Below, in pieces: positions 10,632 through 52,400 of a DNA stretch of 54,717 nt. This DNA is from Chrysochromulina tobinii (taxonomy: Eukaryota): contig JWZX01002799.1 of the NCBI GenBank assembly GCA_001275005.1, positions 1 to 54,717 of the forward strand, in the 5' to 3' direction. Position numbers and translations under genes: made by a program. How positions within the stretch are numbered: position 1 is the first letter of the stretch; every line of letters starts with the position of its first letter. The notes under the pieces are model-generated. The model searched no databases, was not told the origin of the DNA, and worked only from the letters and a program-made list of their open reading frames with translations.

Positions 10632-13600
10632 CTACGCCTGGATGTGGCGGCACAGGACCTCGATGAATTGCGATTTCTCCATGCAGCCTCGGCACTCCTC
10701 GGCCGCATTCACACCTGCGAAAAGGAGGGGGCGTCGCGCCGTAGTGAGCACGTGCATGCAGCGCCGGCACTCCTCGATTATGTGTCGGCCGCATGCACAC
10801 AGCAACTCGCCCCTGCAACTCCTTGCGGAAGTGCTTCATTAGGGTGATGAGTGCGATGAGGGTTCGGGCTCAGGTGAGGGTCAGCATGCATTCATTAGGG
10901 TAATCAGCCAGCATGCACACCTCGCTCCTGCAGCTCCTTGCGGATTTGCTTCATCGTCCACGACTCGTAGTCCTCGGGATGGCACGCCTCCTTGCCATCT
11001 TCCTCGGGCTCATCCGCGTCCCCGCCCACCTGACGAAGCAGGCCATCAGGTTCGTCAGGTGACGAAGCCGGTGACGAAGCAGGCAATCAAGCCAGGCAAT
11101 CAAGCCCTTCAATCAAGCGCACCATGTGCTCGCTCAGCCATCTCTCGGCATCGAGCGCGGCAGATGAGCCGGAACCTGCTGACGTAACGGCCTGCCGGTA
11201 GACCCAATCGGCCACGTCACCCGCTGCAAAGACGCCATCGACCGAGCACTTGGTCGAGGCCGGCTTCGTGATGAGGTACCTGATGAGGGAGGCAATCATA
11301 CCCAGTCAGATGTCATCAGAGGTCATCAGAGGTCATCAGAGGCATCAGAGGTCATCAGAGGCCATCAGAGGCCATCAGGGGTCCTCAGTGGTCCTCAGAG
11401 GCCATCCGAGGCCATCCGAGGCAATCACGCACCTGGATGATGATGGTCATCAGAGGTCATCAGAGGTCATCCGAGGCCATCCGAGGCAATCACGCACCCA
11501 TTCTCAGTCATCTCGAGTTGGCCGTTGAAGAGCATCAGAGGTCATCAGAGGTCATCAGAGGCAATCACGCACCCATTCTCAGTCATCTCGAGTTGGCCGT
11601 TGAAGATCATCAGAGGTCATCAGAGGTCATCAGAGGCAATCACGCACCCATTCTCAGTCATCTCGAGTTGGCCGTTGAAGAGCTGCGTGTTCGGGATGTG
11701 GCCGATCGCGACGAAGGCCGCCTCCGCCGGGATCTCGGTCACGTTGGTTTCGTCAGTCGTCGAGCGCACGGCGACGCTTCCGAGTACGTTCGAGCCCTCG
11801 ACCGCCTTGAACTCGGCCACCGTTGAGTTCCACATGACGGTGATCTTGGGGTTGCTCAGCACGGCGTTCGCGAGCACCTTGGACGCACGGAAGGAGTCGC
11901 GCCTGTGAAGAGGAGGGTGTGAAGAGGAGGGTGCGCAGAGGAGGTGTGAAGAGGAGGTGTGAAGAGGAGGTGTGAAGAGGAGGGTGAAGAGTCGGTGCCA
12001 CGTCGCGCCGCCGTGGTGGGCACTTGCATGCATGCCGCGGAGCTGTGGGAAGCACGCGGCAGGTGGGGTTCGCGCCTGTGAATGAGGACGACGGAGGTGG
12101 AGGTGCGCGCAAGCACTAGGGCATCCTCCATCGCTGTGTCGCCGCCGCCCACGACGACGACCGGCTTGCCGCTGTACAAGAAGCCGTCGCAGGTGGCGCA
12201 GGAGGAGACGCCCCCGCCCTTGAGGTCGTCCTCCCCGGGCACACCTGATGAGGGAAGCCATCAGAGATGCAATCAGAGATGCAATCAGGGAGGCACACCT
12301 GATGAGGGAAGCAATCAGAGATGCAATCAGGGAGGCCATCAGAGGCAATTTCCCAAGGGGCGGTGCGCCTGATGAGATGTGCAATCAGGGAGAGCATCGT
12401 TGACGCATTCAGTGACGCAATGAGTGGCACTCAGTGCAACTCAGAGGCACTCCGAGGCACTCAGCGAGCTACAATCTCGAGCTCAGAGGCACTCAGCGAG
12501 ATACAATCTCGAGCTCGCACCTAGCCAGCGCGAGTCCGCGCCCGTCGCAATCACGATCGACTGCGCCAGGATGACGGAGTTGTTCGTGGTGATCTTGAAC
12601 GGGCGCGACGACAAGTCCACTGACAGCGCCGCCTCCTCCTCAAACGTCGCCGCGAAACGCATCGCCTGGCACAGAGAGAGAGGGAAGCAGAGGCACTCAG
12701 AGGCACTCAGAGGCATTCAGAGGCACTCAGAGGCACTCAGAGGCACTTAAGGCCATCGGCGGCAATCAGGTGCACTCGGCGACCAGCATTTGACATACAG
12801 TGAAACTCCGAATGCAATCATACGGCAATCAGACGACGCCCCGAACGCCATCAGAAGTGCCTCGGCGGCAATCAGGTGCACTCGGCGACCAGCATTTGAC
12901 ATACAGTGAAACTCCGAATGCAATCATACGGCAATCAGACGACGCCCCGAACGCCATCAGAACGCCTTCAGAACGCCATCAGAACGCCATCAGAACGCCA
13001 TCAGAACGCCATCACACCTGCTTCTTCATCAGTCGCACAATGTCGCCACCCGACGCCTCAAAAATGCCCGGGTAGTTCTCCACATTCACACCCTTGGACA
13101 TCAACTGGCCGCCCATCGAAGGCGCCACGACCACCGGCTTGAGGCCCGCACGCGCCGCGTAGATGGCCGCTGTCATGCCCGCAGGCCCCGCTCCCACGAC
13201 CGCAAGCTTGACTGGAACGGCACCTCCCTCGGCAGCGCACCTGATGAGGGAGCTCATCAGGGACGTCATCAGGGAGGTCATCAGGGAGGTCATCAGAGAC
13301 GTCATCAGGGAGGTCATCAGGGAGGCACTCAGAGAGGCCCTCAGAGAGGACTTCAGATTCAACCTAAGATTCCATCTCAGATTCCATCTGCGCACGCCGC
13401 GCACCGCTCGATGATCTTCTCACGCCGCCGCTCGTTCTTCTTGACCATCAGTTCCATCTCCTTCTCCTCCGTAGCCGACTCACGCCGGTAAATCTCGGCC
13501 TTGAGATCCTCGAGATCCATCTTCTTGATGTCAATCTCCTTTGCCTTACTAGACGCGCCACCCTCGTCCTCCACCTGAAGGACCACCCAACAAGGCAACC

Positions 13601-49467: not shown

Positions 49468-52400
49468 CTAAAGCATCTCCCCACGAAGCAGGAGCTTGGG
49501 CAGCCCCTCCGCCACCACCTCCCTCGCGAGGTGCGGGCAGAGGTGCGGGAAGATGAGCAGGCGGCCGCGCCGCGGCGTCACAGCGGCAAGCACTCGTGAA
49601 GGCTGCGCGAGCCGTTGGAGCAGAACCGTCTCGCCGCCTACCGTGCAATCGGTGAGGTAAAGGATAAAGGTGCATTTGGAGGTGCGCCCGTCACGGCGCG
49701 TGCGGCTCAGGTCGACGTGCGGAGGCAGACCGCCGCCTGCCTCGGCGTACAGAAGGTAGCGCATCTGTACCATCGCCTCGCCCTCACACGGCGGGGACTC
49801 GCCCGAAACTCGCGCCGCCCCGAGCACGGCCGCTCGAAGCGCGTTCACCACCCATCCCTCGGCGTCGCAGTAGTACGAGCGGTCGTTGAGGCCCTGCGAA
49901 CAGCGCGCTCGCGCTGCCATCGGAAGCGACGAGTAGAGCTCGTCGAGGGCGACACAGACGCTCTCCGACACGCCACCGTCGATGTAGCAGGCGCCCGCCC
50001 CAGCGTGTAAAGAGGACGGTGGAACCAGGCGAACCAGGCGAGGCTCTGGCGGCACGGGCTGCCAGCTGGGCACCTGGCCTGGCTGGAGAATCGTGGCGAG
50101 GGCGTGTCGAAGCACATACTCCACCGGCGCGAGCCGTGCTGAACCGAGCGCGCCCACGTCGGCACCCGCCTCGGCGAGTAATGCGAGCACCTTCGTGTGC
50201 CCACGCGCGGCGGCCGCGCATGCCGCGGTCGAACCGCCGTGGGAGCGCGTGTCTGCGAGACAGACCAAGACGTAAGAGCATGCCATGAAAATGGCCATCA
50301 GTGGTCCTCAGTGGTCCTCAGCGGCACTCGCCTGCCGATAAACCAAGACGCAAGAGCAGGCGGAGTGCGGCCGAATGCCCATAGGCTGCGCTCAAGAAGA
50401 CGGCGTTCTGCCCATACTCATCGAGCGCACCGCTCAGATCAAAGCCGACGCCGATGAGCGCCTCGAGTCGTACCTGTGGGGAGAGGGTACCGTGGTGAGC
50501 ACTTGCAGCAGCGAGACTCAGCGTCACGCGCCGTAGTGAGCACATACCAAGTCGCCCTCGGCCGCGGCGGCCGCTGCTTGCTCGCGACGTTTCTCGTCGT
50601 TGAGCATGCGCATCTTGGCAAGGGCCGCCTCGCGTGGGGGGGCACTGCGCAGCGTGCGCCGGTTCTCTTTGGGAAGCTCTTTGGAATGGTCTGTGGAATG
50701 GTCGCGGCTGCCACCACTCGCGGTTTCGTCACCCTCGGCCTCGCCGCCCCCGGCGCCTTCATGTTCACAGTCGGCGGCCAGGCCGGCGAGCGCGGCTTTG
50801 GCACGCTGATCCGAGGCCCATTTGCGGCCTGCGGCGACAGCGTCGGCTGCGAGGATGTGTGCGTCAGACCAAATGAGTGGGCGCAGCAGCACGACACTCT
50901 GCGCGAGCACCTGCGAGGTCATGCGAGATCATGCGAGGTCATCCGAGGTCATCAGAGGTCATCAGAGGTCATCAAAGGTCAACAAAAGTCATCAGAGGTC
51001 ATCAAAGGTCAACAAAAGTCTCAGAGGTCATCGGGGTCATCAGCATTATACCTCCCAACGAGCAGTGCCGCTTGCATCCATCTCTAAGCGCAACCAGCCG
51101 ATTGCACGCACGAGGTCACCACGCGCCGCGAGCGAGATGGCGAGCCGTGCCTCGATCAGGTGGGCTCGCGCCTCACTCGCACGCGCATCTGGTGCCGCCT
51201 CGTGTGCCGCCACGTGCACTTGCCCGAGCACGCGGAGATCGAGTACTAGCTGAAGCTGCGCAGGTACTGGCGGCTCATCAGGGTCAAATACGACGGCGTG
51301 CTCCAAGGGTGGCACAGCTTCGAAACGCAGAGAGCCCGGCGCACCTGCGAGGTACTCAGAGGCACTCAGAGGCAATCAAAGACACTCAAAGCAATCCCTT
51401 ATTCATGAGGAAAGTCAGCTGCTTCCCGAGGGTTTTATCAAAGGCACTCAGAGCAATGCCGCCTCACTCATGAGGAAAGTCAGCTGCTTCCCGAGGGCCC
51501 GCCGCCGATCGACTTCCATCTCGATCAGGACGCGTCGCATGCTTGGTGCCTTTGGGCCCGCGCCGTCCACGCCGCCGGATGTACTCGATTTCGTCATCAT
51601 TTCGTCGATTTCTTCAGTCTCGGCTCCGCACCGGGGCTGCCGTGCCGGTATGCATGCGAGCTCGTCGACCGGAGATGCATTCGAGCTCGTTCGCGGTTCG
51701 TCACGTTCGTCAGAATGCACAGGAGGTGCATTCGAACTCTCCCCAGCTCGCCAGCTCTCCACCTCGACGCTACACACCTCTTCGGGCGCCTTGCTCTTAT
51801 CAGCAGCAGCAGCAGCGGACCGAACATACCCAGCCGCAGCACCGGCGGTGAGTGACCTTGCATTTTCCAGTGCCCACGCCGCGAGCGCCGCCGGTAGCCC
51901 TTCGCGGCAAAGGCTCGGCGGCGGCGGCCGAAGCGTCTCGTCCACGACCCGGGGGGCCGCACAGCCGCGACAGACGGGCCGCGAACCAAAGTTAGCGTAC
52001 GCGCAGCATTCACACGTCCAGTCGGCCAGAGGACGTGGTGCGCCTCCTTGGCCGCTCGGCGGCTCGAGTCCGCGCGCTGCCAGCTCGATGGCGGCGGAAG
52101 GGTCCTCCGCCCCACGCATGGGTGCGTGCGCGCCGCATCGAGGGCAGACGATCTCATCGCCCTCCACGCCGACCTCCTCGTCCGTCTCCCTGTCCGTGTG
52201 TCGGTCGCCCTCGTCATCACCATCACCATCCTCGTCGTGGCGGCGTGGCGTGGTAAGCAGAGTGCGCCACACGCAGCCTTCGCAGACCGCGCACCCACAG
52301 GCATCAAAACACACGGTTCGCCCTGTCACACCACACTTGGCGCAGGGCGGCAGCGGCGCGGCGCCGAGCACGACGTCGCGCGCGGCAAAGCAGCGCAGCC

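Follow-up and report, generated by a model that had tools for sequence, protein, structure and literature searches.

Where new spliceosomal introns obtain their sequence and their splice signals is a long-open question. In Daphnia pulex, introns gained by repair of staggered breaks are associated with exon-derived repeats of 4–12 bp (PMC4202315; PMC3443670). The introners of Symbiodinium and Polarella (10.1101/2020.10.14.339549) and of marine Chrysochromulina metagenome-assembled genomes (MAGs; PMC9860276) carry one splice site and co-opt the other. Here we analyse the introns in a 54,717-nt stretch of the freshwater haptophyte alga Chrysochromulina tobinii (contig JWZX01002799.1 of assembly GCA_001275005.1, positions 1 to 54,717, hereafter the window), together with related loci from metagenomes. 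Many of these introns are hybrids of a 17–44-base copy of flanking exon sequence and a piece that is common to other, often nearby, introns.

The architecture is a variant of known intron-gain routes that resembles both break-repair introns and one-site introners, and is unlike either in full. As in Daphnia, and as staggered-break repair predicts, a direct repeat of the adjacent exon bases is present at the intron's opposite end. The repeats found here are mostly 17–44 nt long, and the filler, which includes a branch point, is traced to further introns within the genome, in many cases neighbouring ones, whereas the accessible text on Daphnia names no such source (PMC4202315; PMC3443670). A marine MAG introner also lacks terminal inverted repeats (TIRs) and has the polarity of the mirror class described below (PMC9860276). 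The one-site introners, however, have fixed duplications of 4 or 8 nt and similarity from end to end (PMC9860276; 10.1101/2020.10.14.339549); in C. tobinii the duplications are long and differ in length, introns of either polarity are found and no more than half of each is shared, so that end-to-end similarity, TIRs and a short fixed duplication (3–9 bp) are all absent. Tandem genomic duplication of an AGGT-bearing exon segment likewise provides donor and acceptor context and leaves the protein unchanged (PMC3443670), but the introns studied here do not consist purely of duplicated exon sequence, and the branch point and one of the splice sites come from a piece of another intron between the copies. 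Reverse splicing, by which introns transpose in Oikopleura and Mycosphaerella, similarly yields introns resembling others of the same genome, but it moves whole introns (PMC4122922; PMC3443670); in C. tobinii half an intron lies within a target duplication, in place of a whole intron copied without one. Tandem duplications and templated insertions reportedly follow staggered breaks, and polymerase-theta end joining after paired nicks produces overhang fill-in duplications with templated inserts, as here, although those products come from edited human cells and are unlinked to intron creation (PMC11081867).

The C. tobinii genome paper reports about one intron per gene and gives no intron architecture in its accessible part (PMC4580454). 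A 2022 screen covered the species, and the positives among its listed rows are marine Chrysochromulina MAGs and Emiliania (PMC9860276). A 2025 introner screen has 0 families for C. tobinii, and its main text names no haptophyte; its family fam24 of E. huxleyi, with 5 members, has 10-bp terminal direct repeats and may be related to the hybrid introns (PMC12130899). The accessible text of a review of seven intron-gain mechanisms contains no such hybrid (PMC3443670), and a literature search, with most subscription papers outside its coverage, found no paper describing this architecture.

Two shared modules, termed type A and type B, were followed. In forward introns, the donor comes from the duplicated start of the downstream exon, and the branch point and the AG come from the insert, as proposed in an earlier note on this DNA. 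The intron at 19655–19745 (+), in a gene with a Hint domain downstream, is composed of a 35-nt exact copy of the exon start at 19746–19780 (+), a 12-nt linker and a 44-nt branch-point/acceptor module of type A. The match with the downstream exon start is exact over 26 nt at 30973–30899 (−), a forward type-B intron with a GC donor, and over 15 nt at 33740–33894 (+), a forward type-B intron with a 10-nt-period repeat array. These three examples stand as the earlier note gave them. At 17446–17528 (+; type A) the exact run is shorter, 15 nt followed by a one-base indel and about 7 nt more, and the intron that had been placed at 14373 (14375–14140, −; type B, GC donor, in a thioredoxin–thioredoxin reductase gene) has only an 8-nt match, near chance, with 2% of controls reaching its score. 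The two duplicates that had been called older and degenerate are confirmed at 17329–17406 (+; type A), with 8 nt exact and degenerate beyond, and at 17896–17983 (+; type A), a 26-nt copy with 3 mismatches whose start shifts from 17897 to 17896. The search of the window with the 23-mer of type A, allowing up to 3 mismatches, gave 21 matches, and 32 were found for type B (averages of Markov controls, 0.0 and 0.05); positions 1–10600 contain no match to either motif. More than 15 type-A copies had been claimed on both strands. The number holds, and the apparent use of both strands reflects gene orientation, since 52 of the 53 modules of the two types are sense to their gene (genes assigned by hand).

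For wider counts, the window was combined with 135 metagenome loci fetched by the exact type-A motif, and contigs of three sequencing runs and protein homologues served as further sources. Twenty-one of 136 loci were dropped before counting (14 redundant or from the viral collection, 7 partners in population pairs), leaving 116 non-redundant sources (the window and 115 loci; 370 kb). The genome-wide counts rest on the window and these loci, and fetching by an exact motif favours conserved copies. GT or GC directly follows the acceptor at 168 of 189 type-A and 115 of 155 type-B sites. Where GT or GC comes next, the sequence after the acceptor has an upstream copy (score of at least 10) in 107 of 161 cases for type A and 47 of 104 for type B, compared with 0.3% and 0.7% of mismatched controls. 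These counts across the 116 sources bear out the claims that many intron 5' ends copy the downstream exon start and that this exon begins with GT or GC. The exact 23-nt core is present in at least 135 fetched stretches, and about 1900 are estimated for the metagenome collection. The only viral-collection contig carrying the type-A motif (L001, 1501–1523) is probably host DNA filed as viral.

The copies are perfect at 45 of the 107 type-A sites and contain mismatches at 62. Their length is continuous, with a 5–95% range of 17–44 nt and quartiles of 24, 28 and 33 nt (85 sites with a score of at least 15), and 105 of the 107 type-A copies scoring at least 10 measure 10–50 nt. No TIRs were found, the longest inverted match between the ends being at most 5 nt in 82 of 82 fillers; on both the missing TIRs and the long, variable duplications the earlier description was correct. 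About 40–60 nt per intron derive from a module common to other introns. This shared part is the 3' half in forward introns and the 5' half in mirror introns, and the other end is the locus-specific exon copy. The targets resemble hidden donors even in the exon copy, with G at position +5 in a fraction of 0.71 against a background of 0.30, and G at −1 in 0.80 (n = 132). A scan that used no motif recovered 302 repeat–filler–repeat events, of which 68 were forward and 20 mirror, while the junction fell within the repeat in 50 and 164 lacked an intron register; among random constructs, 19% had an intron register.

In the mirror class, a conserved donor module is combined with the type-A core, and a 20–34-nt copy of the upstream exon end serves as acceptor. 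Members were found in the window at 25652–25575 (−), where the acceptor is a 26-nt exact copy, and in the loci L059, L107, L111 and L136. A further mirror intron at 15877–15959 (+) has as filler an antisense type-B acceptor that runs 22 nt past the AG, followed by a 24-nt copy of the upstream exon end with 2 mismatches; its removal restores the reading frame. Other inserts are also irregular, some being antisense, some ending before the AG and some running past it. In L065, a 54-nt sense and a 57-nt antisense insert, each between duplications, lie mid-exon; neither forms a valid intron and both are read through in frame. Splicing alone does not guide the insertion process. Together with the run-through at 15877, the L065 inserts fit templating at the DNA level, filtered by selection, better than the copying of excised intron RNA, which ends at the AG. 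Tandem type-A cores with short fold-back (hairpin-like) fillers between them were read by eye in L043 (960–1131 and 2982–3077) and near 2985–3117 in L066 and L070, a possible signature of snap-back synthesis. At 40564–40960 (+), five 48-nt units each consist of a truncated type-A core and copied upstream sequence that meet at a short word common to both, and are best read from their sequence as repeated incomplete events at one site.

That these segments are introns is indicated by protein homology and, for part of the window, by reads. Read evidence consists of contigs only and covers 16600–25800; protein homology stands in for 10400–16280. One RNA-library contig joins 19653 to 19745, a skip of 91 nt that equals the intron length, although an intron-free allele would look alike. 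One lake RNA-library contig passes unspliced through 17446–17528 and may represent DNA or pre-mRNA, so it was counted neither way. RNA support for the junctions named in the earlier note is therefore limited to the first of these contigs. Across five introns of the thioredoxin reductase gene, a 304-residue protein, likely derived from a transcript, runs unbroken at 97–100% identity. All 18 junctions fixed by homology have an exact-length GT/GC–AG solution with a matching peptide (16 unique, 2 with two solutions), as expected of splice-neutral introns, and at 17 of the 18 the downstream exon begins with GT or GC. Type-A lengths fall within 57–95 nt in 91 of 93 cases and are distributed over the frame classes as 29, 36 and 28; this lack of a bias towards multiples of three implies that most type-A units must be spliced. 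Copies of a flanking exon edge (score of at least 12) occur in 8 of the 18 introns fixed by homology, against 0 of 612 controls; the downstream exon start is copied in 5, in some cases internally, and the upstream exon end in 5. The duplication pattern is common, not universal, and two-sided. A paralogue test yielded two weak spans across junctions (40% and 51% identity) that were not relied on. No orthologue DNA suited to a comparison of intron positions was found, as genome contigs gave 57 prokaryotic loci and viral contigs none; full-length orthologues on contigs of up to 110 kb hint at intron-free relatives, but only on condition that the gene calls take no account of introns. At 20280–20329, where RNA depth is high, a backward step of 50 nt and loose ends appear in contigs from one DNA run and two RNA runs, corresponding either to a short repeat in the 3' untranslated region common to another locus or to a unit-number variant.

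The origin of the filler was addressed by comparing introns within and between loci. Linkers of at least 9 nt are held in common by 7 of 186 pairs within loci and by 9 of 12668 pairs between loci. Three further comparisons were limited to culture-type loci, which removes population effects. In this set, common linkers occur in 5 of 76 pairs against 0.26 expected (0 of 2000 permutations), derived core variants are common to 13 of 41 pairs within 4 kb against 4.9 expected (3 of 2000 permutations), and type-B tails identical over at least 24 nt occur in 3 of 65 as opposed to 4 of 1730 pairs. Of the 92 sites that have a locus-mate, 19.2 find their nearest match among modules of their own locus, where 2.2 are expected, one tandem pair being included. 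The closest pair in the window is 19655–19745 and the older intron 17896–17983, which lies 1.76 kb away in the next gene; their linkers and modules differ by 2 edits, making the latter a candidate donor. The intron at 17446–17528 has an 8-nt linker in common with the module ending at 16217. A 117-nt repeat-array segment at 21635–21751 (+; family D9) is 99% identical to 23731–23847 (+), which lies in another intron of the same flavin adenine dinucleotide (FAD)-dependent oxidoreductase gene and has copied upstream exon end directly after it. Two pairs, one in L066 and one in L047, include an intron that holds exon-derived bases of the duplication of its neighbour, 1.7 and 2.5 kb away respectively, and this fixes which is donor and which is recipient; in L047, 5 bases of microhomology lie at the switch. 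Apparent pairs on opposite strands of L048 were rejected, since they resemble a coincidental match between coding sequences. Divergence of the core is unrelated to the age of the duplication (rho −0.015, n = 89), and variant cores occur in 10 of 26 perfect duplications. Variant cores in young duplications are expected if the copies come from introns that had already diverged.

Seven population pairs were compared. L079 carries an 81-nt unit, a 33-nt duplication plus 48 nt, that is missing from L012 and L040; this is the one clean presence/absence case, of the kind the earlier note had looked to populations for, and in two pairs (L023/L052 and L048/L104) the number of units is not the same. Over its last 50 nt, the 81-nt unit is identical to the next intron of L012, 447 nt downstream, and this tail occurs in no other of the 136 loci; the downstream neighbour in L079 itself differs from this tail at one site. 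The exon around the unit found no confirmation in Pfam (E 0.2). Duplications of this kind could also be produced by the assembler. The C. tobinii genome is a short-read draft (PMC4580454), and tandem unit numbers vary between contigs. Another assembly (L074), however, is 100% identical over 33178–39200 (6023 nt, including the intron at 33740–33894), other populations carry the same duplications with single-nucleotide polymorphisms, and the 62 imperfect copies are not what an artefact would leave. A DNA contig that ends at 19683, inside the first copy, does so as a real repeat would cause. An assembly artefact is thus so improbable that it can practically be set aside.

We favour, at a probability of roughly 0.55, the reading that hybrid introns are products of DNA repair, in which a short stretch is duplicated and sequence copied from another intron closes the gap, without a transposon. 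The two-part anatomy in both polarities, the neighbour bias, the directional pairs, the presence/absence unit and the copies that form no valid intron are observed; the break, the polymerase and the selection behind them are what we infer. A staggered break, or a stalled fork switching template, would leave an overhang of 20–40 nt that is then filled in. The free end would anneal by a few bases inside another intron, copy up to the splice junction of that intron, and return through a CAG/GT-like word that acceptor junctions share with hidden donors. Forward products, which begin at a hidden donor, and mirror products, which finish at an exon AG, would be spliced out with the protein unchanged, and most others would be removed by selection except where they are in frame or fall within introns. 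Each forward intron would leave a CAG/GTRCG acceptor junction resembling the donor-like landing sites, and introns could in this way seed further introns in a chain that needs neither a transposase nor a master element. Only tentatively, and at less than even odds, do we extend this to a transposon-free chain reaction of intron birth, in which half a neighbouring intron is copied between 20–40-nt duplicates and each new junction templates another. Such a process would still be under way, would vary within wild populations, would account for a large part of the introns of this alga and would escape end-to-end introner screens.

Several results weigh against filling from a nearby intron. A local donor is clear at few sites, the closest module being in the same locus for about 19 of 92, and most sites have no identifiable donor in the few kilobases around them; the filler at 15877 has no close donor within the window. 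The similarity test on mean distances over whole loci is weak (60 of 2000 permutations). Unrelated loci have kept both the 23-nt core and the donor module of the mirror class, which requires selection or long-range spread. Junction microhomology was read off individual cases, few in number. Finally, the 81-nt unit of L079 is in frame and free of stops and so may not be spliced, and in a comparison that has no outgroup its absence from L012 and L040 may be a loss.

An RNA template is an unlikely alternative to repair from intron DNA. At a nick, a non-long-terminal-repeat (non-LTR) reverse transcriptase, or RNA-templated repair, would copy the 3' portion of a pre-mRNA or excised intron, and a second nick 20–40 nt away would give a long, variable duplication. 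Target-primed reverse transcription expects a variable duplication and an insert with one fixed and one variable end, and the forward units, with their variable duplication, fixed AG end and variable 5' end, fit it, as does the sense orientation of 52 of 53 modules. The mirror class, by contrast, has a fixed 5' end and a variable 3' end, and of the features of non-LTR (SINE-like) retroposition the variable target duplication was found and the fixed 3' end of the copied RNA was not. Copies that are antisense, end before the AG or run 22 nt past it also speak against an RNA source, as do the location of the closest pair in two different genes and the many duplications across either splice site that have no foreign insert. 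A possible enzyme source lies at the window start (2–2475, −), where a 260-residue cysteine-bearing open reading frame (ORF) and a 359-residue endonuclease-like ORF, truncated where the window stops, resemble the beginning of a retrotransposon of non-LTR type. Atlas features of the latter match the EEP family (0.94–0.95, a lead only), but it has no Pfam or PDB match. An AT-rich 10-nt-period repeat array (2459–3160; family D13) lies upstream of these ORFs and is unlike the intronic arrays.

The hybrids might instead be old introns that were overwritten. A complete parent intron, with donor module, core and pyrimidine tail, would once have invaded CAG/GT sites as an ordinary introner, and later local duplications and deletions between its two similar junctions would have replaced one end with exon, leaving old positions with renewed sequence. 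Complete parent-like introns with both ends and no clear duplication do occur in L010, L038 and L069, linkers often match the parent 5' module (15 of 142 by at least 4 nt), many homology-fixed introns are compound with duplications inside existing introns, and marine Chrysochromulina MAGs carry introners (PMC9860276). We nevertheless regard overwriting as rather improbable, given the clean empty site and neighbour-derived tail of the L012/L079 pair, the mid-exon inserts of L065, which are no introns, and the recipients that carry bases of a neighbour's exon. Still less probable is the model of the earlier note, in which a non-autonomous cassette, dispersed and constant in sequence, is mobilised in trans and generates a long target duplication. 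The many exact copies of the 23-nt core and the mirror donor module kept in unrelated loci agree with it. A stereotyped cassette from a master copy is contradicted by the lack of a fixed 5' boundary, of TIRs and of a fixed duplication length, by linkers and variants specific to neighbours, by diverged cores in young insertions and core divergence unlinked to age, and by the mirror class and the antisense, early-ending and run-past copies.

The break-repair model explains flanking repeats and not how the filler becomes spliceable; here the filler is traced to existing introns. The alga is in culture and its wild populations differ at a site of this kind, so that the distance to the donor, the microhomology at junctions, the polarity and the pathway become directly measurable. 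The end-to-end filter of a current introner screen, as set out in its accessible text, suggests a class of intron gain that such screens would miss by design (PMC9860276).

Further units of the window illustrate the range of arrangements. Two tandem copies are found in a forward type-A unit with a 28-nt duplication (22487–22634, +) and in a forward unit with a 54-nt duplication, whose module is without its 5' part (23158–23323, +). The forward type-A unit at 23441–23509 (+) is nested at the donor of an existing intron (23441–23661), and the duplicated 24 nt are the intron start and not exon. Forward type-A duplications of 32 nt occur with 1 mismatch in the last unit of a compound intron (36142–36219, +) and with 2 mismatches at 28102–28178 (−). 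Two genes contain the junctions fixed by homology: the thioredoxin–thioredoxin reductase fusion (10635–14806, −) has 10 introns fixed by homology, and the FAD-dependent oxidoreductase gene (20702–24121, +) has 8, with one further junction. In the former, the homology-fixed intron 11280–11647 (−) contains repeated copies of the upstream exon end and donor, and the intron 13575–13912 (−) a 33-nt copy of the upstream exon end with 2 mismatches. The fusion is kept in many relatives of 610–620 residues. Two segments that homologues and the window both contain are missing from the deposited protein model, and the repeats are the likely cause of this annotation error.

Intron-dense and intron-poor genes adjoin each other in the window, which has no Rfam match. 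The gene at 18595–20230 (+) encodes an internally repeated N-terminal region with a weak Cu/Zn superoxide dismutase match, below the curated cut-off, and a C-terminal Hint module. The region at 3900–9750 has a lower GC content (about 53%) and four long uninterrupted ORFs of 415, 247, 486 and 441 residues, which, by their motifs, may encode glycosyltransferases; it is free of type-A and type-B motifs and is possibly a recent acquisition. Coding repeats with an 84-nt period and no intron module extend over 42669–48640 (−), and related sequence is present in L013 and L031.

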